From Octopus sinensis (taxonomy: Eukaryota), in the NCBI RefSeq assembly GCF_006345805.1, contig NC_043025.1, positions 12,152,001 to 12,216,000 on the forward strand: 64,000 nt of DNA, in the 5' to 3' direction. Below the pieces are notes generated by a model. It ran no database searches. It was not told the origin of the DNA and saw only the letters and a list, made by a program, of their open reading frames with translations. Positions 4,340 to 63,650 of the stretch are shown piece after piece; the first letter of the stretch is position 1; each line of letters starts with the position of its first letter. Made by a program: the position numbers and the translations under genes.

Positions 4340-4815
4340 AGTTGGGCACTGTCTGTTTGAAAAAACAGCATCATGAGGCAATTCACTGCCAGAAATTTGG
4401 AAACGACATGCTGTATTGCCTGGCATTCATGCTGAATCCTCCAATGTGAACACTTCAGATTGTTTGGATGTCAATCCGAGGACAGCGTAGAAGATTCGGA
4501 AAAAGCCGAATGAGTCTAGTGGTAATTATGAAGGTATGGCAGCTCGGAGAACTCGCTCTGGTGAGAAAAGAACCCTTGAATTTGTCGGTGACATCCAGGT
4601 CATGATCGACAATGATTCTTCTAACGCTGCCAGGGAAATAGGAGCGTCCAGACTTTCTTATCAGCAGGTATCGCATACAGACATTCGGTATTCCTCAATC
4701 AAGATGAGAAACGGTCAGTTTTTATCCCTAGCCATCAAGGACCAAAAAATGACTGCACTATGAAGCTTTTCAAGAAAATCTAGCATTCCCTACGACTGAA
4801 CGTGCTTTCCTTTTT
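4340..4815 (+). mobile_element. Tc1/mariner-like transposase N-terminal remnant
   Basis: RTLEFVGDIQVMIDND...AREIG...DIRYSSIKMRNGQFLSLAIKD; the last 65 bp or so are repeated at 5216-5285. Confidence 0.6.
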
Positions 4816-5460
4816 CTTGAGCCTCGCCTGGCCCCCGTGCCGGTGACACGTAAAAGCACCATCTGTTCGTGGCCGTTTGCCAGCTCTGTCTGGCACCTGT
4901 GCAGGTGGCACGTAAAAAACACCCACTACACTCACGGAGTGGTTGGCGTTAGGAAGGGCATCCAGCCGTAGAAACACTGCCAGATCTGACTGGGCCTGAC
5001 GAAGCCTTCCAGCTTCACAGACCCCAGTTGACCCGTCCAACCCATGCTAGCATGGAAAGCGGACGCTAAATGATGATGATGATGAAGAAAAATTTCTAGG
5101 CGCAGGAGTGGCTGTGTGGTAAGTAGCTTGCTTACCAACCACATGGTTCCGGGTTCAGTCCCACAGTGTGGCACCTTGGGCAAGTATCTTCTACTATAGC
5201 CTCAGGCCAACTAAAGGACAAATAACAACTGCACTATGAAGCTTTTCAAGAAAATCTAGCATTCCCATCGACTGAACGTTGCTTTGTGTCGAGTCTAAGA
5301 AACGTAAGGGTCTTGATAACATTCTATTGGAGTTACCTGGCGTTACCTGTCGTAAATGGCAATTTAAGCTTATTCAGGACATCCGAATGAAACCAAATTC
5401 CGGATCTATCATCTGGTACTATGATCCGATAGGCAACTCGGGTAAGACCTATTTATCACA

Positions 5461-5856
5461 TTACTCTTTTACTTGTTTCAGTCATGTGACTGCGGCCATG
5501 CTGGAGCACCGCCTTTAATCAAGCAAATCGACCCCGGGACTTATTCTTTTTGTAAGCCCAGTACTTATTTTATCGGTCTCTTTTAGCCGAACCGCTAAGT
5601 AACGGGGGACGTAAACACACCAGCATCGGTTGTCAAGCAATGCTAGGGGGACAAACACAGACACACATATACATATATATATATACATATATACGACGGG
5701 CTTCTTTCAGTTTCCGTCTGCCAAATCCACTCACAAGGCTTTGGTCGGCCCGGGGCTATGGTAGAAGACACTTGCCCAAGGTGCCACGCAGTGGGACAGA
5801 ACCCAGAACCATGTGGTTGGTAAGCAAGCTACTTACCACACAGCCACTCCTGCGCC
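5461..5856 (-). mobile_element. SINE family A inserted into the viral Rep
   Basis: Full head-to-tail copy splitting Walker A from the rest of the helicase. Confidence 0.9.
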
Positions 5857-6026
5857 TTTGTTATATACAAACCTTGCATGGCCTCCGTCTAGAAAATGGT
5901 AGGTCCACTGATCTGAAATATATGCATGATGGCCACAAGATCGTTACCTTTGATTATACACGATCTCAAGAAGATCACATAAACTATGAAGCCCTCGAAA
6001 GTATTAAAAATGGCCTTCTCTGCTCT

Positions 6027-6123
6027 ATGAAGCATGTACCTGTTGTGAAGCATGTACCTGTTGTGAATTATGTACCTGTTGTGAAGTATGTACCTGTTGT
6101 GAAGTATGTACCTGTTGTGAAGT
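6027..6123 (+). repeat. In-frame 18-bp tandem repeat (about 5 copies, K[HY]VPVV) inside Rep
   Basis: gaagcatgtacctgttgt repeated with small variants. Confidence 0.9.
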
Positions 6124-6183
6124 CCTTTCCTATACCTCATGTTGTAGTTTTTGCCAACTTCCCTCCAGACCTTAACAAGATTT

Positions 6184-9100
6184 CAGAAGCTTGGAACGAT
6201 TGCATTAAAAAAAAATTTTTTTTAAGGGTCCAGAAAGAATTCAGCAAATAAATTCAAATTCTGAAATTTATCTAAAAATGCCTGTTAACAGGGTGACACG
6301 AATTCAATAAATTTGATGACTAAAATTTGGAGATGATCTCGACACGGTCAACAAAAATGGTTATACAGCATTACATCATGTTGTGATTGGGTAAGTTTAG
6401 AATGAACATTGCACAATCAAAGCCTTGGCTGAGGGGGCAACATAGATGTCTGCAACATGTTAAAAGAGGGAGCAGATATTAAAACAAGATCCATCCAAAT
6501 TTGATGACAAAATTTGGAGATGATCTCAACGTGGTAAACAAAAATGGTTAGACAGCTTTCCATTATGGTGTGATTGGGTAAGTTTAGAATGAACATTGCA
6601 CAATCAAAGAATTGGCCGAGAGGGCAACATAGATGTCTGCAACATGTTAAAAGAGGGAGCAGATATTAAAACAAGATCCATCCAAATTTGATGACAAAAT
6701 TTGGAGATGATCTCAACGTGGTAAACAAAAATGGTTAGACAGCTTTCCATTATGGTGTGATTGGGTAAGTTTAGAATGAACATTGCACAATCAAAGAATT
6801 GGCCGAGAGGGCAACATAGATGTCTGCAACATGTTAAAAGAGGGAGCAGATATTAAAACAAAATCCAACAAGGGTTATACAGCTTTATATCATGCTGTGA
6901 TCGGGTGAGTTTAGAATGAACATTGTTCAATCAAAGCCTTGGCTGAGAGGGGATGAACATGCCCCATTGAGAGAGTGCTTTGATACATGTCAATCAGGGT
7001 AGGGCAAACTGAAGTGTTGCTCCGACTGAGATCCACATAGAGGTCTTAAACATGTTAAAAGAGGGAGCAGATATTAAAACAAGAGACACAAAGGGTTATA
7101 CAGCTTTACATTGTGCTGTGATCGGGTGAGTTTAGAATTAACATTGCACAATCAAAGCCTTGGCTGAGAGGGGATGAATGTGCCCCATTAAGATAGTCTA
7201 TTGATACATGTCAGTCAGGGTAGGGCAAACTGGAAAGTTGCTCCGACTGAGATCCACATCCCAGAATGAATGCAGACAAGTGTGACATGACATCAGTCAG
7301 ATGTAGAAGGGGTTGCATCTCTCCAGATCGGAGACAAAGGGGTGGGTGAAGCCCCCTAATGCACGTAAATATCACGTAAAAGCACCCACTACACTCACGG
7401 AGTGGTTGGCGTTAGGAAGGGTCCTGAAGGAATTCAGCAAATAAATTCAAATACTGAAACTTATCTAATGATGCCTGTTAACAGGGTAACACGAATTCAA
7501 TAAATTTCATGACAAAAAGGGTCATACAGCATTGCATCATATTGTGATTGGGTAAGTTTAGAATTAACATTGCACAATCAAAGCCTTGGCTGAGAGGGGA
7601 TGAATGTGCCCCATTGAGAGAGTGCTTTGATACACTTCAATCAGGGAAGAGCAAACTGAAGTGTTGCTCCTACTGAGATCCACATTCCTTTATGAATGGG
7701 GTCACCCAAGTGAGACACCACAGCAGTCAGAATTAGAAAGGGTTTTGGTCTGTCTAGATTGGAGACAAAGGAGTGGGTGAAACCCCGTAACGCTTGGTGC
7801 AACAACACAAGGGGAGAAATGAAGGGTGACTGCAATCAGTATAGGAAAAATAGATATCAGTGGATATTCACCAAACAGATGAAAATGGTGAAACATTACT
7901 CATGGCATCTTGTAAACAGGGCAACATAGATGTCTTAAACATTTTAAAAGAGGGAGCAGATATGAGAACAAAATCCAACAAGGGTTAGACAGCTTTACAT
8001 CATGTTGTGATTGGGTAAGTTTAGAATTAACATTGCACAATCAAAGCCTTGGCTGAGGGGGCAACATAGATGTCTTAAACATGTTAAAAGAGGGAGCAGA
8101 TATTAAGACACGAACCAACAAGGGTTAGACAGCTTTCCATTATGGTGTGATTGGGTAAGTTTAGAATGAACATTGCTCAATCAAAGCCTTGGCTGAGAGG
8201 GCAACATAGATGTCTGCAACATGTTAAAAGAAGGGGCATATATTAAAACATGAACCAACAAGGGTTAGACAGCTTTCCATTATGGTGTGATTGGGTAAGT
8301 TTAGAATGAACATTGCTCAATCAAAGCCTTGGCTGAGAGGGCAACATAGATGTCTGCAACATGTTAAAAGAGGGAGCAGATATTAAAACAAAATCCAACA
8401 AGGGTTATACAGCTTTATATCATGCTGTGATGGGGTAAGTTTAGAATGAACATTGCTCAATCAAAGCCTTGGCTGAGAGGGGATGAACATGCCCCATTGA
8501 GAGAGTGCTTTGATACATGTCAATCAGGGTAGGGCAAACTGAAGTGTTGCTCCGACTGAGATCCACATAGAGGTCTTAAACATGTTAAAAGAGGGAGCAG
8601 ATATTAAAACAAGAGACACAAAGGGTTATACAGCTTTACATTGTGCTGTGATCGGGTGAGTTTAGAATTAACATTGCACAATCAAAGCCTTGGCTGAGAG
8701 GGGATGAATGTGCCCCATTAAGATAGTCTATTGATACATGTCAGTCAGGGTAGGGCAAACTGGAAAGTTGCTCCGACTGAGATCCACATCCCAGAATGAA
8801 TGCAGACAAGTGTGACATGACATCAGTCAGATGTAGAAGGGGTTGCATCTCTCCAGATCGGAGACAAAGGGGTGGGTGAAGCCCCCTAATGCACGTAAAT
8901 ATCACGTAAAAGCACCCACTACACTCACGGAGTGGTCGGCGTTAGGAAGGGTCCTGAAGGAATTCAGCAAATAAATTCAAATACTGAAACTTATCTAATG
9001 ATGCCTGTTAACAGGGTAACATGAATTCAATAAATTTCATGACAAAAAGGGTCATACAGCATTGCATCATATTGTGATTGGGTAAGTTTAGAATTAACAT

Positions 9101-12100
9101 TGCACAATCAAGCCTTGGCTGAGAGGGGATGAATGTGCCCCATTGAGAGAGTGCTTTGATACACTTCAATCAGGGAAGAGCAAACTGAAGTGTTGCTCCT
9201 ACTGAGATCCACATTCCTTTATGAATGGGGTCACCCAAGTGAGACACCACAGCAGTCAGAATTAGAAAGGGTTTTGGTCTGTCTAGATTGGAGACAAAGG
9301 GGTGGGTGAAACCCCGTAACGCTTGGTGCAACAACACAAGGGGAGAAATGAAGGGTGACTGCAATCAGTATAGGAAAAATAGATATCAGTGGATATTCAC
9401 CAAACAGATGAAAATGGTGAAACATTACTCATGGCATCTTGTAAACAGGGCAACATAGATGTCTTAAACATGTTAAAAGAGGGAGCAGATATTAAAACAA
9501 GAGACGTCTGTGGTTAGACAGCTTTACATCATGCTGTGATCGGGTGAGTTTAGAATGAACATTGCACAATCAAAGCCTTGGCTGAAAGGGGATGAATGTG
9601 CCCCATTGAGACAGTCTATTGATACATGTCAGTCAGGGTAGGGCAAACTGGAAAGTTGCTCCGACTGAGATCCACATCCCAGAATGAATGCAGACAAGTG
9701 TGACACGACATCGGTCAGTTGTAGAAGGGGTTGCATCTCTCCAGATCGGAGACAAAGGGGTGGGTGAAGCCCCCTAATGCATGTCGCACAACACATAGAG
9801 AGAAATGAAGTGTGTCTGCGATCAGTCTGCGGAAAATAGAAATTGGTGGGAGGAATGCCATGTCACATATCGGGGGTTCAGAGGGTGGTTAGCACCGCTG
9901 GTGACGAAGGAGAGGTAGACACCAGCCCTGTGACCCTTCAAATATCAAAAAGGGAAAAATTGGCCACCCACTGGCTTGGACAATTTCAAAACAGAATAGA
10001 GGAGCAGTGATCTTCATATCTGGGATGGGGTCACAAGAAGAAATTCAGCGGGTAATGTGGATTAAGGGAACCAGACGCAAGGGGAAATGATGTCACACCA
10101 AGAAGCAGTGTGTTTAAACAGTCTCTTTGCTGGGCTGTCCAGTGCAGAAGGTGTGGCTGGGGAAGTATTCCTTTCTGACCAGGAGCTTGGACAGATTGCA
10201 TGCAAAAGAAAAAAAGAGAAAAAAAGGGTCCTGAAAGGATTCAGCAAATAAATTCAAATACTGGAATCTATCTAACGATGCCTGTTGACAGGGTAAAACG
10301 AATTCAATAAATTTCATGACAAAAAAGGTCATGCAGCATTGCATCATGTTGTGATTGGCTAAGTTTACAATTAACATTGCACAATCAAAGCCCTGGCTGA
10401 GAGGGCAACATAGATGTTATAAACATGTTAAAAGAGGGAGCAGATATGAGAACAAAATCCAACAAGGGTTAGACAGCTTTACATCATGTTGTGATTGGGT
10501 AAGTTTAGAATGAACATTGCACAATCAAAGCCTTGGCTGAGGGGGCAACATAGATGTCTTAAACATGTTAAAAGAGGGAGCAGATATTAAGACACAAACC
10601 AACAAGGGTTAGACAGCTTTCCATTATGTTGTGATTGGGTAAGTTTAGAATGAACATTGCTCAATCAAAGCCTTGGCTGAGAGGGCAACATAGATGTCTG
10701 CAACATGTTAAAAGAAGGGGCATATATTAAAACACGAACCAACAAGGGTTAGACAGCTTTCCATTTTGGTGTGATTGGGTAAGTTTAGAATGAACATTGC
10801 TCAATCAAAGCCTTGGCTGAGAGGGCAACATAGATGTCTGCAACATGTTAAAAGAAGGGGCATATATTAAAACACGAACCAACAAGGGTTAGACAGCTTT
10901 CCATTTTGGTGTGATTGGGTAAGTTTAGAATGAACATTGCACAATCAAAGCCCTGGCTGAGAGGGCAACATAGATGTCTGCAACATGTTAAAAGAGGGAG
11001 CAGATATTAAAACACGAACCAACAAGGTTAGACAGCTTTCCATTTTGGTGTGATTGGGTAAGTTTAGAATGAACATTGCACAATCAAAGCCTTGGCTGAG
11101 AGGGCAACATAGATGTCTGCAACATGTTAAAAGAGGGAGCAGATATTAAAACACGAACCAACAAGGGTTAGACAGCTTTCCATTTTGGTGTGATTGGGTA
11201 AGTTTAGAATGAACATTGCACAATCAAAGCCCTGGCTGAGAGGGCAACATAGATGTCTGCAACATGTTAAAAGAGGGAGCAGATATTAAAACACGAACCA
11301 ACAAGGGTTAGACAGCTTTCCATTTTGGTGTGATTGGGTAAGTTTAGAATGAACATTGCACAATCAAAGCCTTGGCTGAGAGGGCAACATAGATGTCTGC
11401 AACATGTTAAAAGAGGGAGCAGATATTAAAACACGAACCAACAAGGGTTAGACAGCTTTCCATTTTGGTGTGATTGGGTAAGTTTAGAATTAACATTGCA
11501 CAATCAAAGAATTGGCCGAGAGGGCAATATAGATGTCTGCAACATGTTAAAGGAGGGAGCAGATATTAAAACAAGAGACACAAAGGGTTATACAGCTTTA
11601 CATTGTGCTGTGATCGGGTGAGTTTAGAATTAACATTGCACAATCAAAGCCTTGGCTGAGAGGGGATGAATGTGCCCCATTAAGATAGTCTATTGATACA
11701 TGTCAGTCAGGGTAGGGCAAACTGGAAAGTTGCTCCAACTGAGATCCACATCCCAGAATGAATGCAGACAAGTGTGACATGACATCAGTCAGATGTAGAA
11801 GGGGTTGCATCTCTCCAGATCGGAGACAAAGGGGTGGGTGAAGCCCCCTAATGCACGTAAATATCACGTAAAAGCACCCACTACACTCACGGAGTGGTTG
11901 GCGTTAGGAAGGGTCCTGAAGGAATTCAGCAAATAAATTCAAATACTGAAACTTATCTAATGATGCCTGTTAACAGGGTAACACGAATTCAATAAATTTC
12001 ATGACAAAAAGGGTCATACAGCATTGCATCATATTGTGATTGGGTAAGTTTAGAATTAACATTGCACAATCAAAGCCTTGGCTGAGAGGGGATGAATGTG

Positions 12101-13745
12101 CCCCATTGAGAGAGTGCTTTGATACACTTCAATCAGGGAAGAGCAAACTGAAGTGTTGCTCCTACTGAGATCCACATTCCTTTATGAATGGGGTCACCCA
12201 AGTGAGACACCACAGCAGTCAGAATTAGAAAGGGTTTTGGTCTGTCTAGATTGGAGACAAAGGGGTGGGTGAAACCCTGTAACGCTTGGTGCAACAACAC
12301 AAGGGGAGAAATGAAGGGTGACTGCAATCAGTATAGGAAAAATAGATATCAGTGGATATTCACCAAACAGATGAAAATGGTGAAACATTACTCATGGCAT
12401 CTTGTAAACAGGGCAACATAGATGTCTTAAACATGTTAAAAGAGGGAGCAGATATTAAGACAAGAGACACAAAGGGTTAGACAGCTTTACATTATGCTGT
12501 GATCGGGTGAGTTTAGAATTAACATTGCACAATCAAAGCCTTGGCTGAAAGGGGATGAATGTGCCCCATTGAGACAGTCTATTGATACATGTCAGTCAGG
12601 GTAGGGTAAACTGGAAAGTTGCTCCGACTGAGATCCACATCCCAGAATGAATGCAGACAAGTGTGACACGACATCGGTCAAAAAGGGAAAATTGGCCACC
12701 CACTGGCTTGGACGATTTCAAAACAGAATAGAGGAGCAGTGATCTTCATATCTGGGATGGGGTCATGTGAAGAAATTCAGCGGGTAATGTGAATTAAGGG
12801 AACCAGACGCAAGGGGAAATGATGTCACACCAAGAAGCAGTGTGTTTAAACAGTCTCTTTGCTGGGCTGTCCAGTGCAGAAGGTGTGGCTAGGGATGTAT
12901 TCCTTTCTGACCAGGAGCTTAGACAGATTGCATAATAGGAAAAAAAGAAAAAAAAAAGGGTCCTCAAAGGATTCAATAAATAAATTCAAATACTGAAATT
13001 TATCTAAAAATGCCTGTTAACAGGGTAACACGAATTCAATAGATTTCATGACAAAAAAGGTCATACAGCATTGCATCATGTTGTGATTGGGTAAGTTTAG
13101 AATGAACATTGCTCAATCAAAGCCTTGGCTGAGAGGGGATGAGCATGCCCCATTGAGAGTGTGCTTTGATACATGTCAATCAGGGTAGGGCAAACTGAAG
13201 TGTTGCTCCTACAGAGATCCACATTCCATTATGAATGGAGACAGCCAAGTGTGACACCACAGCAGTCAGAAGTAGAACGGGTTTTCATGTGTCCAAATTG
13301 GAGACAAAGGGGTGAGTGAAACCCCGTAATCATGGTGCACAACACAAGGGGAGAAATGAAGGGTGGCTGCAATCAGTACTTGGAAAAATAGATATCAGAT
13401 GAATATGGTGAAACGTAACTCATGGCTGCTTGTAAACGGGGCAACATAGATGTCTGAAACATGTTAAAAGTGGGAGCAGATATTAAGACAAGATCCATCC
13501 AAATTTGATGACAAAATTTGGAGATGATCTCGACGTGGTAAATAAAAATGGTTAGACAGCTTTACATTGTGTTGTGATTGGGTAAGTTTAGAATTAACAT
13601 TTGCACAATCAAAGCCTTGGCCGAGAGGGCAACATAGATGTCTTAAACATGTTAAAAGAGGGGGCAGATATTAAAACAAGAGACAAAAAGGGTTAGACAG
13701 CTTTACATCATGCTGTGATTGGGTAAGTTTAGAATTAACTAAAAC
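6184..13745 (+). repeat. Ankyrin-exon-derived mosaic tandem array, block 1 (140-bp core unit plus interleaved modules; 1530-bp higher-order duplication)
   Basis: The unit reads GNIDV(L/C)NMLKEGADIKTRDKKG(*/Y)TALHHAVIG|gtaagtttagaattaac. About 28 donor-bearing copies. 6991-7960 recurs at +1530 and partly at about 11570-12500. Confidence 0.9.
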
Positions 13746-14530
13746 CTTCGGATCTGTTTGGTTTCAAAATTCCTCCCAATTCTAGAGTAGTGTAACATCC
13801 AAAGGTGAGGCATGCAAAAAGCACCACCCGGAGGTGACTGATGCCAGGGCGCCCTGGTAGACACCTGAATAGATTAGCAGTGATCTTTAGATCTGCGTGG
13901 GTTCATGTGAAGAAATTAAAGGGGCAATGAGAATGAGGACCAGAACCAAGAAGAAAGGATTTTCACATTACGAAGCATAGTATCTAAAGATTTCAGTCTC
14001 TTCTGGGTTGTCTCATGCAAAAGGTGTGGTTTGGGAAATTTCACATTTTGGCAAGAAGTTTAGGTAAAGTCCAGATAAACTTAATCAAATTTAGACAATG
14101 GCACTTACCTAACGAAGCCTGTGAAGTGGGTAACACAAGAATAATAAGTTTGAGGATAGAAGTTGGAGATGAGAGGAATCGGTGACAAAGACAATGAAAC
14201 AGCATTACATTATTCTGTGATTGGGTTAAGTTTAGAATTAACTAAAATCTCCAGATCTGAGTTTGTTTCTGAATTCCATCTAATTCTTGCCCAGTGAAAT
14301 ATTCAAAGATATGGCATGGAAAAAGCCCCACCCGAACATGACGAATGCCGGGGTCCCCTTACTATCTCCTGTATCGATCATCATCATCATCATTATCATT
14401 TAACGTCCGCTTTCCATGCTAGCATGGGTTGGACAGTTCAACTGGGGTCTGGGGAGCCCGAAGGCTGCACCAGGCCAGTCAGATCTGGCAGTGTTTGGCA
14501 GATAAATATCCGAATGTGATCAACACCAGC
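13735..14530 (+). repeat. Segment duplicated at about 18255-18930 (degenerate ankyrin-exon variant plus modules)
   Basis: Near-identical sequence from aaaccttcggatctgtttgg to gtgatcaacaccagctc. Confidence 0.85.
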
Positions 14531-14629
14531 TCCCTCAGGCTGGCTCCTTCGCTGATGGCACATAAAAAGCACACGCTACAGTCCGGAGTGGTTGGCATGT
14601 GGAAGGGCATTCAGCTTCAGGAACATTGC

Positions 14630-14780
14630 TGGATCCGATTGGAGGACGTCCACCACAGATGGCTTTGCTCTGTCGTAGATATCTAATGGAAGGAATCCAT
14701 CACCAACATTGAAGCGCTCAAGCAGGCCAACATCTGAGCATTGAAGACTTCCTGCTCTTCAGACAGCCTCAGGAGGGAAG
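14630..14780 (+). mobile_element. Degenerate RTE-like LINE RT C-terminal fragment
   Basis: LEDVHHRWLCSVVDI*WKESITNIEALKQA resembles the FHQRCLRxILxIxWxDxITNxEVL motif. Confidence 0.6.
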
Positions 14781-15069
14781 GCCATGTGAGAAGCATGCAC
14801 AAACCTAGATTGCCAAGGGATGTATTCGACAGCAAGCCCAGCTAAATCAAAAGGACACTCCCAACAGAAGAGTACCAGAGAACAGCTAAAATACCAGCTT
14901 ACCCTGGCAGAGATTTTCCCCACCCACAAAACAAGGTAGGAAGGAGTTGCAGCATAGAGTGGTGAGGTGAGAAACTGTATCCACACTACCGCAGGGGACC
15001 TTGAAAACACCCGAGCAAGTGCCACGGATGAGGAATTAACTAAAATCTCCAGATGTTTACTTTAATTAA

Positions 15070-17860
15070 TGAAATGTTTGCTTGTAAACAGGACGACACA
15101 GTTTCATGGGGACAAACTAATCTAATGATGGCCTGTAGAAAGGACGACAGTTTTATGGGGACGAACTCCTTTAATGTTTGCTTGTAAACAGGGCGACACA
15201 GTTTTATGGGGACGAACTCCTTTAATGTTGGCTTGTAAACAGGGCGACACAGTTTTATGGGGACAAACTCCTTTAATGTTGGCTTGTAAACAGGGCGACA
15301 CAGTTTTATGGGGACGAACTCCTTTAATGTTTGCTTGTAAAGAGGGCGACACAGTTTTATGGGGACGAACTCCTTTAATGTTTGCTTGTAAACAGGGCGA
15401 CACAGTTTTATGGGGACGAACTCCTTTAATGTTGGCTTGTAAACAGGGCGATACAGTTTTATGGGGACAAACTCATCTGATGATGGCCTGTAGAAAAGAC
15501 GACAGTTTTATGGGGACGAACTCCTTTAATGTTGGCTTCTAAACAGGGCGACACAGTTTTATGGGAACGAACTCATCTGATGATGGCCTGTAGAAAGGAC
15601 AAGAGTTTTATGTGGACAAACTCCTTTAATGTTTGCTTGTAAACAGGGCGACACAGTTTCATGGGGACAAACTCATCTAATGATGGCCTGTAGAAAGGAC
15701 AAGAGTTTTATGTGGACAAACTCCTTTAATGTTTGCTTGTAAACAGGGCGACACAGTTTCATGGGGACAAACTCATCTAATGATGGCCTGTAGAAAGGAC
15801 AAGAGTTTTACGTGGACAAACTCCTTTAATGTTTGCTTGTAAACAGGGCGACACAGTTTCATGGGGACAAACTCATCTAATGATGGCCTGTAGAAAGGAC
15901 AAGAGTTTTATGTGGACAAACTCCTTTAATGTTTGCTTGTAAACAGGGCGACACAGTTTCATGGGGACAAACTCATCTAATGATGGCCTGTAGAAAGGAC
16001 AAGTTTTTATGTGGACAAACTCCTTAATGTTTGCTTGTAAACAGGGCGACACAGTTTCATGGGGACAAACTCATCTAATGATGGCCTATAGAAAGGACAA
16101 GAGTTTTATGTGGACAAACTCCTTTAATGTTTGCTTGTAAACAGGGCGACACAGTTTCATGGGGACAAACTCATCTAATGATGGCCTGTAGAAAGGACAA
16201 GAGTTTTATGTGGACAAACTCCTTTAATGTTTGCTTGTAAACAGGGCGACACAGTTTCATGGGGATAAACTCATCTAATGATGGCCTGTAGAAAGGACAA
16301 GAGTTTTATGTGGACAAACTCCTTTAATGTTTGCTTGTAAACAGGGCGACACAGTTTCATGGGGACAAACTCATCTAATGATGGCCTATAGAAAGGACAA
16401 GAGTTTTATGTGGACAAACTCCTTTAATGTTTGCTTGTAAACAGGGCGACACAGTTTCATGGGGACAAACTCATCTAATGATGGCCTGTAGAAAGGACAA
16501 GAGTTTTATGTGGACAAACTCCTTTAATGTTGGCTTGTAAACAGGGCGACACAGTTTCATGGGGACAAACTCATCTAATGATGGCCTGTAGAAAGGACAA
16601 GAGTTTTATGTGGACAAACTCCTTTAATGTTGGCTTGTAAACAGGGCGACAGTTTCATGGGGACAAACTCATCTAATGATGGCCTGTAGAAAGGACAAGA
16701 GTTTTATGTGGACAAACTCCTTTAATGTTGGCTTCTAAACAGGGCGACACAGTTTCATGGGGACAAACTCATCTAATGATGGCCTGTAGAAAGGACGACA
16801 CAGTTTCATGGGGACAAACTCATCTAATGATTGCCTGTAGAAAGGACGAGAGTTTCATGGGGACAAACTCATCTAATGATGGCCTGTAGAAAGGACAAGA
16901 GTTTTATGTGGACAAACTCCTTTAATGTTGGCTTGTAAACAGGGCGACACAGTTTCATGGGGACAAACTCATCTAATGATGGCCTGTAGAAAGGACAAGA
17001 GTTTTATGTGGACAAACTCCTTTAATGTTTGCTTGTAAACAGGGCGACACAGTTTCATGGGGACAAACTCATCTAATGATGGCCTGTAGAAGGGACAAGA
17101 GTTTTATGTGGACAAACTCCTTTAATGTTTGCTTGTAAACAGGGCGACACAGTTTCATGGGGACAAACTCATCTAATGATGGCCTGTAGAAAGGACAAGA
17201 GTTTTACGTGGACAAACTCCTTTAATGTTTGCTTGTAAACAGGGCGACACAGTTTCATGGGGACAAACTCATCTAATGATGGCCTGTAGAAAGGACAAGA
17301 GTTTTATGTGGACAAACTCCTTTAATGTTTGCTTGTAAACAGGGCGACACAGTTTCATGGGGACAAACTCATCTAATGATGGCCTGTAGAAAGGACAAGA
17401 GTTTTATGTGGACAAACTCCTTTAATGTTTGCTTGTAAACAGGGCGACACAGTTTCATGGGGACAAACTCATCTAATGATTGCCTGTAGAAAGGACGAGA
17501 GTTTCATGGGGACAAACTCATCTAATGATGGCCTGTAGAAAGGACGACACAGTTTCATGGGGACAAACTCATCTCATGATGGCCTGTAGAAAGGTCAAGA
17601 GTTTTATGGGGACAAACTCCTTTAATGTTTGCTTGTAAACAGGGCGACACAGTTTTATGGGAACGAACTCATCTGATGATAGCCTGTAGAAAAGACGACA
17701 GGTTTATGGGGACGAACTCCTTTAATGTTGGCTTGTAAACAGGGCGACACAGTTTTAACAAACTTGTAGAAAGGGGTTGGAGTTGATTTCAACATGAGTG
17801 ACAAAATTGCTCCTACAGCTTTCAATGATGCCATGATTGGGTAGGGTCAGAATTAACTAA
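15070..17860 (+). repeat. Ankyrin-helix satellite: 51-bp monomer turning into a 100-bp (49+51) dimer, ending in the rest of the ankyrin exon and its donor
   Basis: Monomers translate GRTPLMFACKQGDTVLW / WGQTHLMMACRKD. The array runs into GVGVDFNMSDKIAPTAFNDAMIG|gtagggtcagaattaac at about 17760-17860. Confidence 0.9.
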
Positions 17861-18989
17861 AATCCTCAGATTTGCTTTAAAATTTCTTGCAATTCTCGAC
17901 TTGTGAAATATGAAAAATGCGGCACATAAGAAGCACAACCCGAAGGTGTTCGATGGCAGGGCCTCCTGAATAGAGTAGCAGCGATCTTTGGAGCTGGGGT
18001 GGGGTCATGTGAAGAAATGAAAGGGGCAATGAGAATGAGATGAGTTTGTCCTTACAAAAAAGGGGAAAAAAACTCCCCACTTACGGCTAATAAACTTAAT
18101 GAAATTTAGATGATAACACTCACCTAACGATGTCTGTGAAGTGGGTAACACAAGAATAATAAGTTTGAGGATAGAATTTGGAGATGATAAGAATCGGTGA
18201 CAAAGACAATGAAACAGCATTACATTATTCTGTGATTGGGTTAAGTTTAGAATTAACTAAAATCTTCGGATCTGTTTGGTTTCAAAATTCCTCCCAATTC
18301 TAGAGTAATGTAACATCCAAAGGTGAGGCATGCAAAAAGCACCACCCGGAGGTGACTGATGCCAGGGCGCCCTGGTAGACACCTGAATAGATTAGCAGTG
18401 ATCTTTAGATCTGCGTGGATTCATGTGAAGAAATTAAAGGGGCAATGAGAATGAGGACCAGAACCAAGAAGAAAGGATTTTCACATTGCGAAGCAGAGTA
18501 TCTAAAGATTTCAGTCTCTTTTGGGTTGTCCTTTGCAAAAGGTGTGGTTTGGGAAATTTTACATTTTGACAAGAAGTTTAGGTAAAGTCCAGATAAACTT
18601 AATCAAATTTAGACAATGGCACTTACCTAACGAAGCCTGTGAAGTGGGTAACACAAGAATAATAAGTTTGAGGATAGAATTTGGAGAAGATAGGAATCGG
18701 TGACAAAGACAATGAGACAGCATTACATTATTCTGTGATTGGGTTAAGTTTAGAATTAACTAAAATCTCCTGATCTGAGTTTGTTTCTGAATTCCATCCA
18801 ATTCTTGCCTGGTGAAATATTCTAAGATATGGCATGGAAAAAGCCCCACCCGAACATGATGAATGTCGGGGTCCCCTTACTAGCTCCCGTATCGATGGCA
18901 GATAAATATCTGAATGTGATCAACACCAGCTCACGACATCCTTCTAACCAGTATACGCTCCAAAAATTGGAAAAAGAAATAGCCTCTTA

Positions 18990-19800
18990 ACACCAAGCCA
19001 CAGTCGAACCAATTCTACTATATGGCTCAGAAACCTGGACGTTATCAAAGAAGCTTGAGAGGCGATTGGATGGAACCTACACTCGCCTCCTTATGAGAGC
19101 TCAAAATCTCTCGTGGAAGAGTCATCCAACCAAAGTACAAATATATGGAAAACTACCACCAGTATCAGCTCAGAGCCATAGGTTGCAGGGTTGTTGAGAT
19201 TTCAAACTTAAAATCTTCAAAGCCACAGTCGAACCAATTCTACTATATGGCTCAGAAACCTGGACGTTATCAAAGAAGCTTGAGAGGTGGTTGGATGGAA
19301 CCTACACTCGCCTCCTTATGAGAGCTCAAAATCTCTCGTGGAAGAGTCATCCAACCAAAGTACAAATATATGGAAAACTACCACCAGTATCAGCTCAGAG
19401 CCATAGGTTGCAGGGTTGTTGAGATTTCAAACTTAAAATCTTCAAAGCCACAGTCGAACCAATTCTACTATATGGCTCAGAAACCTGGACGTTATCAAAG
19501 AAGCTTGAGAGGCGGTTCGATTGAACCTACACTCGCCTCCTTATGAGAGCTCAAAATCTCTCGTGGAAGAGTCATCCAACCAAAGTACAAATATATGGGA
19601 AACTACCACCTGTGTCATCTCTTGTGAAAGGTAGGAGAGTCCAGTTTGCTGGACATTATTGTATAGCTGAAAACGAGGTAATTTCTACTCTTCTCCGCTG
19701 GAAGCCATCTATGCACGATACTAGAGGGTGCACACTCTCCTACCCTGATGTAATCTCCAGGGATACAAGCATCCAGCAACAGAATTGGTGATGACGTGAT
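18990..19800 (+). mobile_element. RTE-clade LINE RT C-terminal fragment, triplicated in tandem (225-bp period)
   Basis: KATVEPILLYGSETWTLSKKLERRLDGTYTRLLMRAQNLSW...; tatggctcag at 19021, 19246 and 19471. Confidence 0.85.
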
Positions 19801-20324
19801 GCAGATTCTATTACAGAAGTATGCATTGTTCATGATAATCAAGCCATCAACTTGTCTTCAATTGACTGGTAAGACAATGTTAGATTCCGGTGGAGATTTC
19901 TTAAGAGCTGCATACAGACCCAGTAGAAATAGAATTGTGGATGACACCATCGCGCAACCAAAACCATGACTTAGTGGGGATGAATCTGCCCTCTGAAGCA
20001 TTCCAGTATAAATGGAGACATCCATGTTTGGCCCCACAGCAGTCAGATTTAGAAGGGGTTAAATCTGTTCAGATAAGAGGGCAAGAATGGGTGAAGCCCC
20101 ATAATGCATGCCAGTTCACGTATCGTGTGTTTGGATGGTGGTTAGCGCCACTGATGAAAAAGCTGAGGGAGAGACCAGCCCTGTGACCCTGCGAAGATAA
20201 CAAAGGGAACATTGGCCACCCAAGGAGAGGAGCAGTGATCTTTAGACCTGGGGTGGTGTCACGTGAAGAAATGAATCGGGTAATGTGGATTGAGGGAACC
20301 AGACGCAAATTACATCCTAATAAA

Positions 20325-20500
20325 ATCAACGAAACATCTTCAAATGGTCAAACTCTCATGGTGACCTCTTGTTAGCAAGGTAACATAGAACTAATAAAGA
20401 CGATGTTAGGTGCCGGTGGAGATTTCTTTAACCAAATAAATTCAAATGGTTATACAGCTTTACATATGTTGTGATTGGATAAGAGTAGAATTAAATAAAA
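20325..20500 (+). pseudogene. Diverged full-length ankyrin exon remnant
   Basis: INETSSNGQTLMVTSC*QGNIELIKTMLGAGGDF...NGYTALH followed by a decayed donor (gataagagtagaattaa). Confidence 0.7.
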
Positions 20501-20849
20501 TTAAATAAAATGAGTGGACCAAAAGGAAGGGGAAATGATGTCACACCAAGAAGGAGTGTGTTTGAACAGTCTCTTTGCTGGGCTGTCCAGTGCAGAAGGT
20601 GTGGCTAGGGAAGTGTTCCTTTCTGATCAGAAGTTTGGGTCGATTGCATAAAAAGAAAGAAAATGAGGAAAAAATTAATTCAAGTGTAGAGAAAATTATC
20701 CAAAGAAATTCACAGAGTAAACTTACCTGATGAGTACTGGTTAGCAGGGTAACACAGACGTAACACACCTGTCGATAGGAGTTGGAGTTGACGTAAACGA
20801 GAGACACACCTGGGGATACAGTGTTACGTCATTGCTAAAATCCACACCT

Positions 20850-21140
20850 CCTTTGGACCTCTCCAGATGTGCGTACGGTAGAGTCATGCACTGCAAGTGC
20901 CCTGTAGAACCACGGTCCACAACATGGTTGTCATCATTTCTTTACGGGGTCAGACGTTTGGTTGCTGTACAGGAAGCAAGTCAGATGCAGGAGCACGTCC
21001 ACCACAGATGCCTTTGCTCCATCACAGAGTTCATCTCCTTGGAAGGAGGACACCACCAACAATGAAGCCCTCAAGCAGGCCCGCTTCTGTGCATTGAAGC
21101 CCTCATGCTCTTCAGACAGCCTCAGGAGGGCTCGGGTTGC
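20850..21140 (+). mobile_element. Degenerate RTE-like LINE RT C-terminal fragment
   Basis: LYG...LYRKQVR...EHVHHRCLCSI...WKEDTTNNEALKQA, with frameshifts. Confidence 0.6.
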
Positions 21141-21359
21141 ATTACACAGACATAGCGCACAGGACCTCCACGTTTGCCTGTATGCTAAATTCCTTGAATT
21201 CCCGAGCCACTCCTTACCAAAAGGGCCGTGTATCACATGGTTAGTAATTCCATACCATATTTGGAAATTTATTTTGCATCATTTCTTAAAGAAGTGAATT
21301 CATGATTAATCACCAATGCCAATAATAAATTTTAAAAAATGACTAGAATATAAATAGGC

Positions 21360-24300
21360 GAGCGAGTAAACGGGGTTACATATGTCCAGATCGGACACAA
21401 AGGGGTGGAGGAAGCCCCGTAATGCATAGTGCACACCGCAAGGGGAGAAATGAAGGGTGACTGCAATCAGTACAGGAAAAATACGTATCAGTGGATATTC
21501 ACCAAACAGATGAAAATGGTGAAACGTAACTCATGGCTGCTTGTAAATGGGGCAACATAGATGTCTTAAACATGTTAAAAGTGGGAGCAGATATTAAAAC
21601 AAGATCCATCCAAATTTGATGACAAAATTTGGAGATGATCTCAACGTGGTAAACAAAAATGGTTAGACAGCTTTCCATTATGGTGTGATTAGGTAAGTTT
21701 AGAATTAACATTGCACAATCAAAGCCTTGGCTGAGAGGGCAACATAGATGTCTTAAACATGTTAAAAGAGGGAGCAGATATTAAAACAAAATCCAACAAG
21801 GGTTATACAGCTTTACATTGTGCTGTGATGGGGTAAGTTTAGAATTAACATTGGACAATCAAAGCCTTGGCCGAGAGGGCAACATAGATGTCTTAAACAT
21901 TTTAAAAGAGGGAGCAGATATTAAGACAAGATCCATCCAAATTTGATGACAAAATTTGGAGATGATCTCAAAGTGGTAAACAAAAATTGTTAGACAGCTT
22001 TCCATTATGGTGTGATTAGGTAAGTTTAGAATGAACATTGCACAATCAAAGCCTTGGCCGAGAGGGCAACATAGATGTCTGCAACATGTTAAAAGAGGGA
22101 GCAGATATTAAAACAAGAGACAAAAAGGGTTAGACAGCTTTACATGGTGCTGTGATCGGGTGAGTTTAGAATGAACATTGCACAATCAAAGCCTTGGCCG
22201 AGAGGGCAACATAGATGTCTGCAACATGTTAAAAGAGGGACCAGATATTAAGACACGAACTAATGAGGGTTAGACAGCTTTCCATTATGGTGTGATTGGG
22301 TGAGTTTAGAATTAACATTGCACAATCAAAGCCTTGGCTGAGAGGGCAACATAGATGTCTGCAACATGTTAAAAGAGGGAGCATGTATTAAAACACAATC
22401 TAACAAGGGTTAGACAGCTTTCCATTATGCTGTGATGGGGTAAGTTTAGAATTAACATTGCTCAATCAAAGCCTTGGCTGAGGGGGCAACATAGATGTCT
22501 TAAACATGTTAAAAGAGGGACCAGATATTAAAACAAAAGATGTCTGTGGTTAGACAGCTTTACATGGTGCTGTGATCGGGTGAGTTTAGAATTAACATTG
22601 CACAATCAGAGCCTTGGCCGAGAGGGCAACATAGATGTCTGCAACATGTTAAAAGAGGGAGCAGATATTAAAACAAGAGACAAAAAGGGTTAGACAGCTT
22701 TACATGGTGCTGTGATCGGGTGAGTTTAGAATTAACATTGCACAATCAGAGCCTTGGCCGAGAGGGCAACATAGATGTCTGCAACATGTTAAAAGAGGGA
22801 GCAGATATTAAAACAAGAGACAAAAAGGGTTAGACAGCTTTACATGGTGCTGTGATCGGGTGAGTTTAGAATTAACATTGCACAATCAGAGCCTTGGCCG
22901 AGAGGGCAACATAGATGTCTGCAACATGTTAAAAGAGGGAGCAGATATTAAAACAAGAGACAAAAAGGGTTAGACAGCTTTACATGGTGCTGTGATCGCG
23001 TGAGTTTAGAATTAACATTGCACAATCAAAGCCTTGGCTGAGAGGGCAACATAGATGTCTTAAACATGTTAAAAGAAGGGGCATATATTAAAACAAAATC
23101 CAACAAGGGTTATACAGCTTTACATTGTGCTGTGATGGGGTAAGTTTAGAATTAACATTGGACAATCAAAGCCTTGGCCGAGAGGGCAACATAGATGTCT
23201 TAAACATTTTAAAAGAGGGAGCAGATATTAAGACAAGATCCATCCAAATTTGATGACAAAATTTGGAGATGATCTCAAAGTGGTAAAGAAAAATTGTTAG
23301 ACAGCTTTCCATTATGGTGTGATTAGGTAAGTTTAGAATTACATTGCACAAATCAAAGCCTTGGCCGAGAGGGCAACATAGATGTCTTAAACATGTTAAA
23401 AGAGGGAGCAGATATTAAAACAAGAGACAAAAAGGGTTATACAGCTTTACATGGTGCTGTGATCGGGTGAGTTTAGAATGAACATTGCACAATCAAAGCC
23501 TGGCCGAGAGGGCAACATAGATGTCTTAAACATTTTAAAGAAGGGACCAGATATTAAGAAAGAACGAACTAATGAGGTTAGACAGCTTCCATTATGGTGT
23601 GATTGGGTGAAGTTTAGAATAACATTGCACAATCAAAGCCTTGGCCGAGAGGGCAACATAGATGTCTGCAACATGTTAAAAGAGGGAGCAGTATTAAAAC
23701 ACAATCAAACAAGGGTTAGACAGCTTTCATTATGCTGTGATGGGTGAGTTTAGAATGAACATTGCTCAATCAAAGCCTTGGCCGAGAGGGGCAACATAGA
23801 TGTCGTAACATGTTAAAAGAGGGACCAGATATTAAAACAAAGAACTAATGAGGGTTAGACAGCTTTACAATGGTGCTGTGATCGGGTGAGTTTAGAATTA
23901 ACATTGCACAATCAAAGCCTTGCCGAGAGGGCAACATAGATGTCTGCAACATGTTAAAGAGGGAGCAGATATTAACACAAGACAAAAAAGGGTTAGACAG
24001 CTTTACATTATGCTGTGATCGGGTGAGTTTAGAATTAACATTGCACAATCAAAGCCTTGGCTGAGAGGGCAACATAGATGTCTTAAACATGTTAAAAAGA
24101 GGGCATATATTAAAACAAAATCCAACAAGGTTAGACAGCTTACATGTGCTGTGATGGGTAGTTTAGAATTAACATTGCACAATCAAAGCCTTGGCCGAGA
24201 GGGCAACATAGATGTCTTAAACATTTAAAAGAGGGAGACAGATCCAAATTTGAACAAAAGGAGATGACTCAAAGTGTAAAGAAAAATTGTTAGACAGCTT

Positions 24301-27300
24301 TCCATTATGGTGTGATTAGGTAAGTTTAGAATTAACATTGCACAATCAAAGCCTTGGCCGAGAGGGCAACATAGGTGTCTTAAACATGTTAAAAGAGGGA
24401 GCAGATATTAAAACAAGAGACGTCTGTGGTTAGACAGCTTTACATCATGCTGTGATTGGGTAAGTTTAGAATTAACATTGCTCAATCAAAGCCTTGGCCG
24501 AGAGGGCAACATAGATGTCTGCAACATGTTAAAAGAGGGAGCAGATATTAAAACAAGAGACAAAAAGGGTTAGACAGCTTTACATGGTGCTGTGATCGGG
24601 TGAGTTTAGAATTAACATTGCACAATCAAAGCCTTGGTCGAGAGGGCAACATAGATGTCTGCAACATGTTAAAAGAGGGGCATATATTAAAACAAAAGAC
24701 AAAAGGGTAGACAGCTTTACATTGCTGTGATGGGGTGAGTTTAGAATTAACATTGCTCAATCAAAGCCTTGGCCGAGAGGGCAACATAGATGTCTGCAAC
24801 ATGTTAAAAGAGGGAGCAGATATTAAACAAGAGACAAAAGGGTTAGACAGCTTTTACATGGTGCTGTGACGGGTGAGTTTGAATTAAACATTGCACAATC
24901 AAAGCCTTGGTCGAGAGGGCAACATAGATGTCTGCAACATGTTAAAAGAGGGAGCAGATATTAAAACAAGAGAAAAGTCTGGGTTAGACAGCTTTACATC
25001 ATGCTGTGATTGGGTAAGTTTAGAATTAACATTGCTCAATCAAAGCCTTGGCCGAGAGGGCAACATAGATGTCTGCAACATGTTAAAAGAGGGAGCAGAT
25101 ATTAAAACAAGAGACAAAAAGGGTTAGACAGCTTTACATGGTGCTGTGATCGGGTGAGTTTAGAATTAACATTGCACAATCAAAGCCTTGGTCGAGAGGG
25201 CAACATAGATGTCTGCAACATGTTAAAAGAGGGAGCAGATATTAAAACAAGAGACAAAAAGGGTTAGACAGCTTTACATGGTGCTGTGATCGGGTGAGTT
25301 TAGAATTAACATTGCTCAATCAAAGCCTTGGCCGAGAGGGCAACATAGATGTCTGCAACATGTTAAAAGAGGGAGCAGATATTAAAACAAGAGACAAAAA
25401 GGGTTAGACAGCTTTACATTGTGCTGTGATCGGGTGAGTTTAGAATTAACATTGCACAATCAAAGCCTTGGCTGAGAGGGCAACATAGATGTCTTAAACA
25501 TGTTAAAAGAGGGAGCATGTATTAAAACACAATCTAACAAGGGTTAGACAGCTTTCCATTATGGTGTGATTGGGTAAGTTTAGAATGAACATTGCACAAT
25601 CAAAGCCTTGGCTGAGAGGGGATGAGCATGCCCCATTGAGAGTGTGCTTTGATACATGTCAATCAGGGTAGGGCAAACTGAAGCGTTGCTCCTACTGGGA
25701 TCCACATTCCATTATGAATGCAGACAGCCAAGTGTGACACCACAGCAGTCAGAAGTAGAACGGGTTTTCATGTGTCCAAATTGGAGACAAAGAGGTGGGT
25801 GAAACCCCGTAATCATGGTGCACAACACGAGGAGAGAAATGAAGGGTGGCTGCAATCAGTACTTGGAAAAATAGATATCAGTGGATATTCACCAAACAGA
25901 TGAAAATGGTGAAACGTAACTCATGGCTGCTTGTAAAGGGAGCAACATAGATGTCTTAAACAAGTTAAAAGAGGGAGCAGATATTAAAACAAGATCCATC
26001 CAAATTTGATGACAAAATTTGGAGATGATCTCAACGTGGTAAACAAAAATGGTTAGACAGCTTTCCATTATGGTGTGATTAGGTAAGTTTAGAATTAACA
26101 TTGGACAATCAAAGCCTTGGCCGAGAGGGCAACATAGATGTCTTAAACATTTTAAAAGAGGGAGCAGATATTAAGACAAGATCCATCCAAATTTGATGAC
26201 AAAATTTGGAGATGATCTCAACGTGGTAAACAAAAATGGTTAGACAGCTTTCCATTATGGTGTGATTAGGTAAGTTTAGAATTAACATTGCACAATCAAA
26301 GCCTTGGCTGAGAGGGCAACATAGATGTCTTAAACATGTTAAAAGAAGGAGCAGATATTAAAACAAAATCCAACAAGGGTTATACAGCTTTACATTGTGC
26401 TGTGATGGGGTAAGTTTAGAATTAACATTGGACAATCAAAGCCTTGGCCGAGAGGGCAACATAGATGTCTTAAACATTTTAAAAGAGGGAGCAGATATTA
26501 AGACAAGATCCATCCAAATTTGATGACAAAATTTGGAGATGATCTCAACGTGGTAAAAAAAAATGGTTAGACAGCTTTCCATTATGGTGTGATTAGGTAA
26601 GTTTAGAATTAACATTGGACAATCAAAGCCTTGGCCGAGAGGGCAACATAGATGTCTTAAACATTTTAAAAGAGGGAGCAGATATTAAGACAAGAGCCAT
26701 CCAAATTTGGAGATGATCTCGACGTGGTAAACAAAAATAGTAATACAGCTTTCCATTATGGTGTGATTGGGTAAGTTTAGAATTAACATTGCTCAATCAA
26801 AGCCTTGGCTGAGAGGGGATGAATGTGCCCCATTGAGACAGTGCTTTGATACATGTCAGTCAGGGTAGGGCAAACTGAAGTGTTGCTCCTACAGAGATCC
26901 ACATTCCATTATGAATGGGGTCACCCAAGTGTGACACCACAGCAGTCGGAAGTAGAAGGGGTTTTCATGTGTCCAGATCGGAGACAAAGAGGTGGGTGAA
27001 ACCCCGTAATGCATGGTGCACAACACAAGGAGAGGAAATGAAGGGTGACTGCGATCACTACATGGAAAATATATCGGTGGATGGAATGCCGTGTCGCATA
27101 TCCGATGTCTTGATAATGGTTAGCTTCCTTGATGATAAAAGGGGAGGGAGAGACCAATCCTGTGATCCTGCGACGATAACAAAGGGAACATCGGCCACCA
27201 AAGTGGTTGGACAATTTCAAAACAGAATAGAGGGGCAGTGATCTTCAGATCTGGGGTGGGGGTCATAAAGGGAACATCGGCCACCAAAGTGGTTGGACAA

Positions 27301-28160
27301 TTTCAAAACAGAATAGAGTGGCAGTGATCTTCAGATCTGGGGTGGGGGGGGTCATGTGAAAAAATGAAGGGGGGTCATGGGGCTGGCACGAGAGGAGAGG
27401 ATGTCACACCAAGAAGCAGAGTGTTTCAACAGATTCTTGGCATGGTTGTCTGGTGCCAAAAGGTGTGTTTTGGGAAATGTGAACAGAGTCACGGGATCTG
27501 ACAAAGTTGATGCCTGCTTGTAAAAAAAGGCAACGTAGATGTAATAAACCATGTTATCGACATACACGATCCAAGAAAGATGGACGTATACAATGCCGTA
27601 AAAAAAAAACAAAAAAAACCCTACCAATACATTTTCAGGGCCACAAAATGAGAATCCTGGTTGAAGAAAAGGCCATAAGGGACAGCAAACATCAAACCAA
27701 TAACAAACCAAGGAAACACCTTAAAAGGGCATATAACCTGCCCCAATTACAAAAAGAATTATACATGTTAGTTGGCATCTTCCAGACTGATTCACATTTG
27801 ATATTCTCCCCACACAATTCATTTTCAACAATATACAGATACCTTTTCTTCTGCTGTGATTGGGTAAGTTTAGAATTAACATTGCACAATCAAAGCCTTG
27901 GCCGAGAGGGCAAAATGTGTGTTTTGGGAAATATTCCACTCTGACTAGAAGCTTGGATAGATTGCATTAAAAATATAAAAAAAAAGGTCCAGAAAGAATT
28001 CAGCAAATAAATTCAAATACTGAAACTCATCTAAAAATGCCTGTTAACAGGGTAACACGAATTCAATAAATTTGATGACAAAAAAGGTCACACAGCATTG
28101 CACCATGTTGTGATTGGGTAAGTTTAGAATTAACATTGCACAATCAAAGCCTTGGCTAAA
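21360..28160 (+). repeat. Ankyrin-exon-derived tandem array, block 2 (about 35 units of 140/187 bp)
   Basis: Same unit as block 1; exact 140-bp period, e.g. 22621/22761/22901. Confidence 0.9.
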
Positions 28161-50530: not shown

Positions 50531-50614
50531 ATGGATATTCATAAGATTATTGAGAAAATTGATGGAGGGGACATAGAAGGTGCCAAAAACTTGATAAAGA
50601 AATATTCAGATGTA
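50531..50614 (+). CDS. ANK-RING gene coding exon 1 (MDIHKIIEKIDGGDIEGAKNLIKKYSDV)
   Basis: Strong polypyrimidine tract and AG at 50527-50528, ATG at 50531, donor GTAAGT at 50615, phase 0 matching the next exon. Confidence 0.75.
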
Positions 50615-54459: not shown

Positions 54460-54515
<56 letters not shown>

Positions 54516-57500: not shown

Positions 57501-57658
57501 AATCCCTCTCTCTCTCTCTCTTTCGGAGAGGCACTGAGCAGCTATACACACACGGCAGTAACTCCCACCTACCGAATTCAATCACAAAGCTTTGGTCGGC
57601 TCGGGGCTATAGTGGAAGACACCTGCCCAATGGTAGGGGGACAAACACAGACACACAA

Positions 57659-57734
<76 letters not shown>

Positions 57735-63564: not shown

Positions 63565-63650
63565 GTGAGTATAAAATAAGGGTACATAACTATGTTGGCC
63601 CATAGAACTCCAAAAGGAACATAGGGGTGGTTTCCCGGTCCCTCTGGCAT

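Follow-up and report, generated by a model that had tools for sequence, protein, structure and literature searches.

An array of ankyrin exon copies upstream of an ANK-RING-DEATH gene

The window is the whole stretch of 64,000 nucleotides that was analyzed, C29:12,152,001-12,216,000 of the Octopus sinensis genome, and it holds a long array of exon copies and an intact gene of the ANK-RING-DEATH type (Table 1). Exon 1 of the gene lies at 50531-50614, exon 2 at 52527-52681, and exon 3 begins at 54021; the death-domain exons are outside the window, past its end. The protein, P0001, is labeled "MIB2-like" (Octopus sinensis) in its source and, according to Pfam, consists of ankyrin repeats, one RING of the C3HC4_3 type (327-370), and a death domain (417-488). 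Mind bomb proteins carry MIB_HERC2-ZZ-MIB and REP domains and multiple RINGs. P0001 resembles MIB1 and MIB2 in that a RING of the C3HC4_3 type comes after its ankyrin repeats, but it differs from them in its single RING and C-terminal death domain, and no N-terminal MIB, ZZ, or REP domain was detected in it by Pfam. Compared over its full length, P0001 is closest to other Octopus proteins. Mib is not mentioned in PMC8166818.

The ANK-RING-DEATH family is large. At least 47 exon-2 matches were found genome-wide (150 candidates scored), and a query of exons 6 to 8 matched 147 of 150 scored candidates, retrocopies included. An immune role for the family is our inference, drawn solely from its domains and its expansion. 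Inverted paralogs flank the window at C29:12,139,100-12,144,830 (−7 kb) and 12,256,700-12,269,200 (+116 kb), and the left one looks truncated, with exons 1, 2, and 4 alone recovered. On contig C619, two exon-2 copies lie 3 kb apart. Among paralogs, the first ~36 to 100 nt of intron 2 are apparently more conserved than exon 2, hinting at fast protein change or at an intronic element. Within the titles and the beginnings of abstracts that the searches covered, we found no published description of the family expansion, of the arrays, or of octopus densovirus relics.

An ungapped scan of the + strand with the donor region of one copy detected 66 copies between positions 6376 and 28135, while a family exon-2/intron profile detected 68 copies that reach the donor region, 60 of them with a GT(A/G)AG donor. 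These counts agree with the 65 to 70 donor-bearing copies estimated in an earlier reading of the letters without database searches (the sequence-only reading). The reverse strand has no match to a 14-nt donor pattern. The array unit aligns significantly to exon 2 and the intron start of the neighboring gene (z = 23.5, 500 shuffles), as that reading had proposed; among other exons of the gene, z is 7.2 for exon 4 and at most 1.1 for exons 3 and 6 (500 shuffles). The phase-2 donors, the quoted peptides, and the acceptor at 54021 were likewise as claimed, and phase 2 at the position of the unit also holds for exon 4. The reading had noted no other amplified exon. A blastn comparison of the array with the rest of the neighboring gene and with the downstream paralog indeed returned exon 2 only, and tblastn with the remaining protein parts gave weak generic ankyrin matches only, among the matches listed; however, ~9 nt of exon 1 are present in the array as well. 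The 22-kb array itself was confirmed, but it is a mosaic and not a plain series of exon cassettes: 11,792 of its 21,977 bases derive from exon 2 and its intron, and 5,301 are retroelement-derived (matching one retroelement copy).

Across positions 17760-28800, contigs of four runs from four studies, one run being possibly the source of the assembly, cover 25 to 29 of 30 bins, and this part of the array is therefore no assembly artefact. Indels within 23.3-25.1 kb are possibly sequencing errors. Three of eight runs that we guess to be RNA (their RNA or DNA status is a guess) cover the array, in contigs that carry no strand. Common SINEs are scarcer in the array and at C29:13.00-13.04 Mb than in the surrounding DNA.

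Table 1 Features of the window (positions counted from its first base) and of the two sister loci (chromosome coordinates)
Feature	Position	Strand	Remarks
Transposase fragment, high-copy	4491..4760	+	HTH_23 on a relative
Endogenous CRESS-DNA-virus Rep C-terminal relic	5282..6197	+	SINE-split; adjoins left end of array
Whole array	6184..28160	+	Mosaic; its exon-2/intron-2 copies fall into at least 6 diverged lineages; also holds LTR-integrase and LINE pieces
LTR-retrotransposon integrase, longest 3'-end piece	9548..10193	+ (sense)	Old, dispersed element
IQQ lineage	10230..10375	+	End of exon 1 fused to an exon 2 that has an internal deletion; intron start follows
140-bp tandem run	10350..11664	+	Exon 2 without its 5' third, followed by 17 nt of intron and 28 nt of integrase
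QTD lineage, full-length exon-2 copy	12358..12523	+	Stop codon; without acceptor
LNQ lineage	14070..14311, 18588-18829	+	Opens with an exact 10-nt end of exon 1; exon 2 and ~85 nt of intron 2 follow
100-bp satellite	15100..17911	+	26.6 copies, from 5' part of an exon-2 copy
LINE 3' fragment, high-copy	18991..19785	+ (coding)	
INE lineage	20316..20501	+	Exon-1 end joined to exon 2, then intron start
Older LINE fragment	20835..21140	+ (coding)	Second copy near 14640-14780
Second tandem block	21550..26790	+	140/187-bp
Neighboring ANK-RING-DEATH gene, intact	50531..63565	+	P0001, 508 aa; RING exon ~62883-63030
Sister locus on C29	C29:13.011-13.07 Mb		~57 kb; minus-strand matches only
Sister locus on C14	C14:52.345-52.379 Mb		34 kb; minus-strand matches only

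Lineages, repeat units, and spacers

The lineages of the array are as distant from each other as paralogs are. In the QTD copy, integrase DNA is joined precisely to the first exon base, and further IQQ copies lie at 6230, 7423, 8953, 11915, 12962, and 27989. To judge from its sequence, the 140-bp unit is a cassette of ~463 bp minus a deletion between two AGGG microhomologies. The 100-bp satellite continues into the remainder of the same exon and its intron. Nested higher-order repeats within the array are 98.4 to 99.4% identical, and identity between the stretch 19779-20431 and the C29:13.02 Mb sister locus is ~96%.

In a tree of 38 rows, from which most near-identical copies were omitted, the backbone is without resolution and monophyly of the array is not rejected (p-AU 0.19). 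Codon positions were compared for three pairs of lineages, which were picked after viewing from 15 tabulated pairs, the remaining ones being mostly flat: QTD and SDK differ by 15, 6, and 23 changes at positions 1, 2, and 3 (Fisher P = 1.4e−4), IQQ and SDK by 16, 7, and 19 (P = 0.008), and the bias between QTD and IQQ is not significant. Change within lineages is flat across codon positions. Given that the third-position excess between QTD and SDK is expected of separate coding parents, the pattern favors derivation of the array from at least two such parents.

Beyond the intron start, the spacer DNA resembles dispersed copies, with 65 to 75% identity. One dispersed copy has weak matches to rve (E 0.006) and Integrase_Zn (E 0.013) just upstream of its spacer-like part, and all spacers map to a single segment of ~700 nt at the 3' end of the integrase, on the sense strand. 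The integrase pieces stand on both sides of the gene piece in permuted order, late coordinates before it and early ones after it. No LTR was identified at the array. An antisense LINE was rejected as the source of the spacers in favor of this sense-strand LTR integrase.

The LINE fragment at 18991..19785 is presumably RTE-like, by its motifs, and the transposase fragment is presumably Tc1/mariner-like. Pfam searches of 91 of the 134 open stretches between 4.3 and 30.5 kb returned ankyrin and two marginal matches only, and the transposon and Rep labels therefore rest on relatives elsewhere in the genome. The Rep relic has four relatives on C3, C16, and C19 (63 to 71% identity), of which the C3 relative matches Viral_Rep (E 2.7e−23); a search of the Rep frame against the PDB gave nothing significant.

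The paralog family, and not the neighboring gene, as the source

To compare the array with its possible sources, exon 2 was taken from 28 paralog loci. The descent from exon 2 that the sequence-only reading had proposed was borne out for the paralog family. The intron-start and phase match is real but is not specific to the neighboring gene: the array matches 13 to 16 of the first 17 intron bases in all 28 paralogs. Over 36 bases, the neighboring gene matches 22, whereas 24 of the 28 paralogs match 27 or more. Across 25 array and sister-locus rows, the neighboring gene ranked 3rd to 28th of the 28 paralogs and was never first. Its longest perfect exon-2 match to the array is 9 nt, the lowest of the 28 and within the range of shuffled sequences (9 to 12). 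The proposed link of the array to the neighboring gene is thus contradicted, and derivation from the ANK-RING-DEATH paralog family is well supported by these comparisons. Exon identity between the array lineages and living paralogs is 64 to 75%, and among the best candidates scored we found no close living parent, none exceeding ~77%.

The array copies lack what a usable exon needs at its 5' side. No copy has an acceptor, and profiles of the acceptor and of the whole of exon 1 match the real gene only. A polypyrimidine tract is absent from all copies, although several retain the first exon base. We parsed 50 copies between the GNID codons and the donor. The reading frame is open in 8, one of which is garbled, stops interrupt 26, and indels disrupt the other 16, of which 5 lie in the stretch that possibly holds sequencing errors. 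Because there is no acceptor and 42 of the 50 are broken, the copies are not usable exons, and with 0 acceptors and 8 open copies the array does not have the makeup of a Dscam-like array of mutually exclusive exons.

An exon 1|exon 2 junction suggests an RNA intermediate

Several array copies begin with some 9 nt from the 3' end of exon 1, fused precisely to exon 2. In six of the eight junction variants tested, a score for the end of exon 1 peaks exactly at the start of exon 2 and at none of 12 neighboring offsets, and the level of this score is reached at 0.2% or less of window positions. Junction-positive are the IQQ, LNQ, and INE lineages of the window and two sister-locus variants, where the register of IQQ and INE follows from a gap-free exon alignment and that of LNQ depends on the junction itself; the QTD and IIQ lineages show no exon-1-end signal. 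A donor follows exon 1 in each of the 20 paralog exon-1 matches that were recovered, that of the neighboring gene among them. The joining of exon 1 to exon 2 therefore suggests an RNA intermediate. Intron 2 is retained for 17 to ~85 nt, contrary to a mature mRNA template; a transcript with only part of its introns removed would be needed.

A search with the junction pattern recovered a sister-locus copy only. Searches with junction-spanning peptides recovered tandem intronless family copies comprising exons 1 to 4 at C14:52.365-52.378 Mb, and tandem intronless copies from exon 6 to the death domain are present at C1:41.735-41.763 and C1:107.080-107.102 Mb. We propose that the array probably began with RNA-mediated capture by template switching, possibly from more than one paralog, followed by amplification at the DNA level. 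A reverse transcriptase would capture partly spliced ANK-RING-DEATH transcripts, switches between templates of transposon, viral, and host origin would build a chimera, and tandem duplication would then amplify it. The exon-1 match is only ~9 to 10 nt long, and the junction variants may come from one event. A few bases seem, by eye, to be shared at the presumed switch points.

Two sister loci share a single-orientation layout

Between 4.5 and 28.2 kb of the window, all five independent pieces (transposase, Rep relic, ANK/integrase chimera, and two LINEs) face the + strand, a co-orientation that is weak by itself (1 in 16) and comes from a post hoc test with a limited query set. An L1 piece directly left of the window faces the minus strand. 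The same kind of layout extends over longer distances at the two sister loci. The locus on C29 contains a near-complete L1, IS1595/Merlin, Parvo_NS1, Rep, RTE, Helitron, integrase, and ANK pieces, together with a 293-bp satellite in 47 copies that joins the end of exon 2, its intron, and an array-type integrase piece and that adjoins the Parvo_NS1 relic; exon-6 (129-bp repeats) and RING pieces are also there, on the minus strand. The locus on C14 contains Merlin, L1, Viral_Rep, three NS1 relics, a near-complete Tc1, and spliced ANK copies. Plus-strand elements lie immediately outside both mosaics, whose flanks are mixed, and local SINEs, used as a control, are balanced in orientation (26/23 and 15/11). 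By its contents, the C14 locus makes a better candidate for a piRNA cluster than the window does.

The flank common to the C14 and C29:13.02 Mb loci is NS1-like. At sister loci, an NS1 relic, with 75 to 79% protein identity to one on C14, runs into an exon-1-end|exon-2 junction, and three kinds of RNA appear to have been stitched together there. A compact copy of the array components, 93% identical, lies at C29:13,295,184-13,300,159; this further sister locus has both orientations, which speaks against the single-orientation reading, and it could make an imperfect hairpin if transcribed.

A prediction set beforehand was half borne out in three further blocks, two on C1 and one on C20: almost all elements are co-oriented, one ANK piece is inverted, and none of the three has viral relics. 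The C1 blocks (C1:41,735,000-41,763,000 and C1:107,079,000-107,103,000) hold tandem spliced copies of the 3' half of the family gene, and a separate exon-6 piece there retains an intron start. The C20 block (C20:20,120,000-20,165,000) has repeated exon-7 pieces amid plus-strand LINE and LTR fragments.

Weighing the explanations

As one of two options, the sequence-only reading had offered a reservoir of ankyrin variants for ANK-RING ligases; for the neighboring gene, the copies would serve either as alternative 5' exons, with splicing to the acceptor at 54021, or as gene-conversion donors. The shared strand, the compatible phase 2, and the 60 canonical donors would fit such a role, but the array lacks acceptors and a start exon, most copies are broken, all three annotated isoforms of the neighboring gene share its own exon 1 as their start, and no GT..AG joint occurs among the joints listed for contigs. 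Conversion donors fare no better, since only 9 identical nt of exon 2 argue against recent conversion. We consider a reservoir of this kind very improbable. The reading had also suggested an exon-born satellite of decayed paralogs, and of this idea the family ancestry stands. Its DNA-level form, in which the LTR-interrupted exon 2 of a decayed paralog was tandemly duplicated as DNA and exon-1-like bases arose by chance, would account for the donor with up to 85 nt of retained intron 2, for the paralogs that flank the window, and for array monophyly not being rejected. It is nevertheless improbable, because the exon-1-end signal stands in exact register, the acceptor and polypyrimidine tract are missing even from copies that hold the first exon base, no other exon lies nearby, and spliced family copies are present elsewhere.

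If the fragments did arrive through RNA, the array may still be inert, with jumps of the reverse transcriptase giving one orientation and unequal crossing-over inflating passive satellites. The neutral divergence within lineages, the proportion of broken copies, the near-identity of the nested repeats, and the absence of viral relics from the C1 arrays are all in keeping with inertness, which we regard as a serious possibility while leaning against it. It poorly explains a co-oriented near-complete L1, near-complete Tc1, Merlin, and Helitron over 34 to 57 kb. DNA transposons insert in either orientation. In favor of a mechanical cause, copy-choice recombination has been proposed to explain the co-polarity of LTR elements and endogenous viral elements in Aedes (10.1101/127498, in the part of the text available). 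The best explanation, which we hold tentatively and would not yet call probable, is that retro-captured and tandemly amplified fragments accumulated in a locus of the uni-strand piRNA-cluster type. The layout agrees with such a locus in the window (5 of 5 pieces) and in the minus-only matches over 34 and 57 kb, and viral relics stand at the left edge of the array (Rep) and at the sister loci (Parvo_NS1 and Viral_Rep) but are absent from the three further blocks.

Small RNAs as a possible product of the array

Small RNAs cut from a transcript antisense to the array would be directed at transposons and viruses as well as at some of the paralogs. Minus-strand transcription of the array into piRNAs seems to us quite possible, if short of an even expectation. 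The sequence-only reading had listed a small-RNA source among its options, but had not noted the spliced exon 1|exon 2 junction, the integrase spacers, the viral relic, or the sister loci. In the light of these, a source of small RNAs, aimed at paralogs other than the neighboring gene, would be the most plausible function of the array. Perfect stretches shared with the array reach at least 16 nt in 17 of the 28 paralogs and at least 22 nt in 6, with 26 nt in the paralog at C29:12.268 Mb and 22 to 24 nt in five others. These matches fall mostly in conserved TALHYAV codons and therefore may merely reflect conservation; with exon identities of 64 to 75% to living paralogs, the targets are short. 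That the array functionally silences paralogs by way of these conserved codons is conceivable on sequence grounds and, in our estimate, unlikely. As far as the consulted parts of the reports go, molluscs produce piRNAs in soma and germline alike, and coding mRNAs take part in ping-pong (PMC6128900), and octopus piRNAs are reported with no loci named (PMC12479628).

Comparison with known systems

A close parallel is Pxyfem of Plutella xylostella, which, in the portion of its description that we drew on (10.1101/2022.04.04.486979), lies in a transposon graveyard and consists of tandem partial host cDNAs fused to pieces of LTR retrotransposons. The array shares with it the tandem, multi-copy pieces of host gene and LTR retrotransposon. 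Pxyfem has three exon junctions, one target gene, and demonstrated small RNAs, whereas the octopus array, known from sequence alone, has a single short junction, retains an intron start, stems from a family of 47 or more members, and includes several lineages and viral relics.

Clusters rich in endogenous viral elements in Aedes and flamenco in Drosophila carry viral relics or transposon fragments in one orientation over tens of kilobases, according to the sections seen of 10.1101/127498 and 10.1101/2022.08.22.504762. The octopus loci resemble them, in layout alone, by their one-orientation relics and transposon fragments. They differ from what those sections describe in that the relics come from ssDNA viruses (CRESS Rep and parvoviral NS1) and in that host gene fragments dominate and have been amplified into satellites.

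LTR-mediated retroposition, as outlined in the text seen of PMC5131818, places a partial mRNA copy in the ORF of an LTR element, with short similarity at the junctions and possibly multiple parents. The exon-exon junction (six of eight variants, ~9 nt) and the integrase on both sides recall such retrocopies. Unlike the retrocopies of that account, the array has permuted instead of collinear element coordinates, only one ~700-nt segment of the element, no LTR identified, retained intron 2, and tandem rather than dispersed copies.

Implications

Even if inert, the loci show that one gene family has repeatedly undergone retro-capture and become satellites, at no fewer than five other sites. These loci also provide coordinates for candidate piRNA clusters of the flamenco/Aedes type with viral relics in a cephalopod, and they draw attention to a large ANK-RING-DEATH family that is filed in databases as "MIB2-like" and under similar names. 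If the array makes antisense piRNAs, these would match the paralog at C29:12.268 Mb and five others, and not the neighboring gene. It is a rather less likely, broader conjecture that several uni-strand piRNA clusters of the octopus repeatedly trapped its own ANK-RING-DEATH transcripts together with RNAs of ssDNA viruses and amplified them as satellites. If this is true, one small-RNA system would serve both as viral memory and as dosage control of a signaling family of 50 to 100 members.
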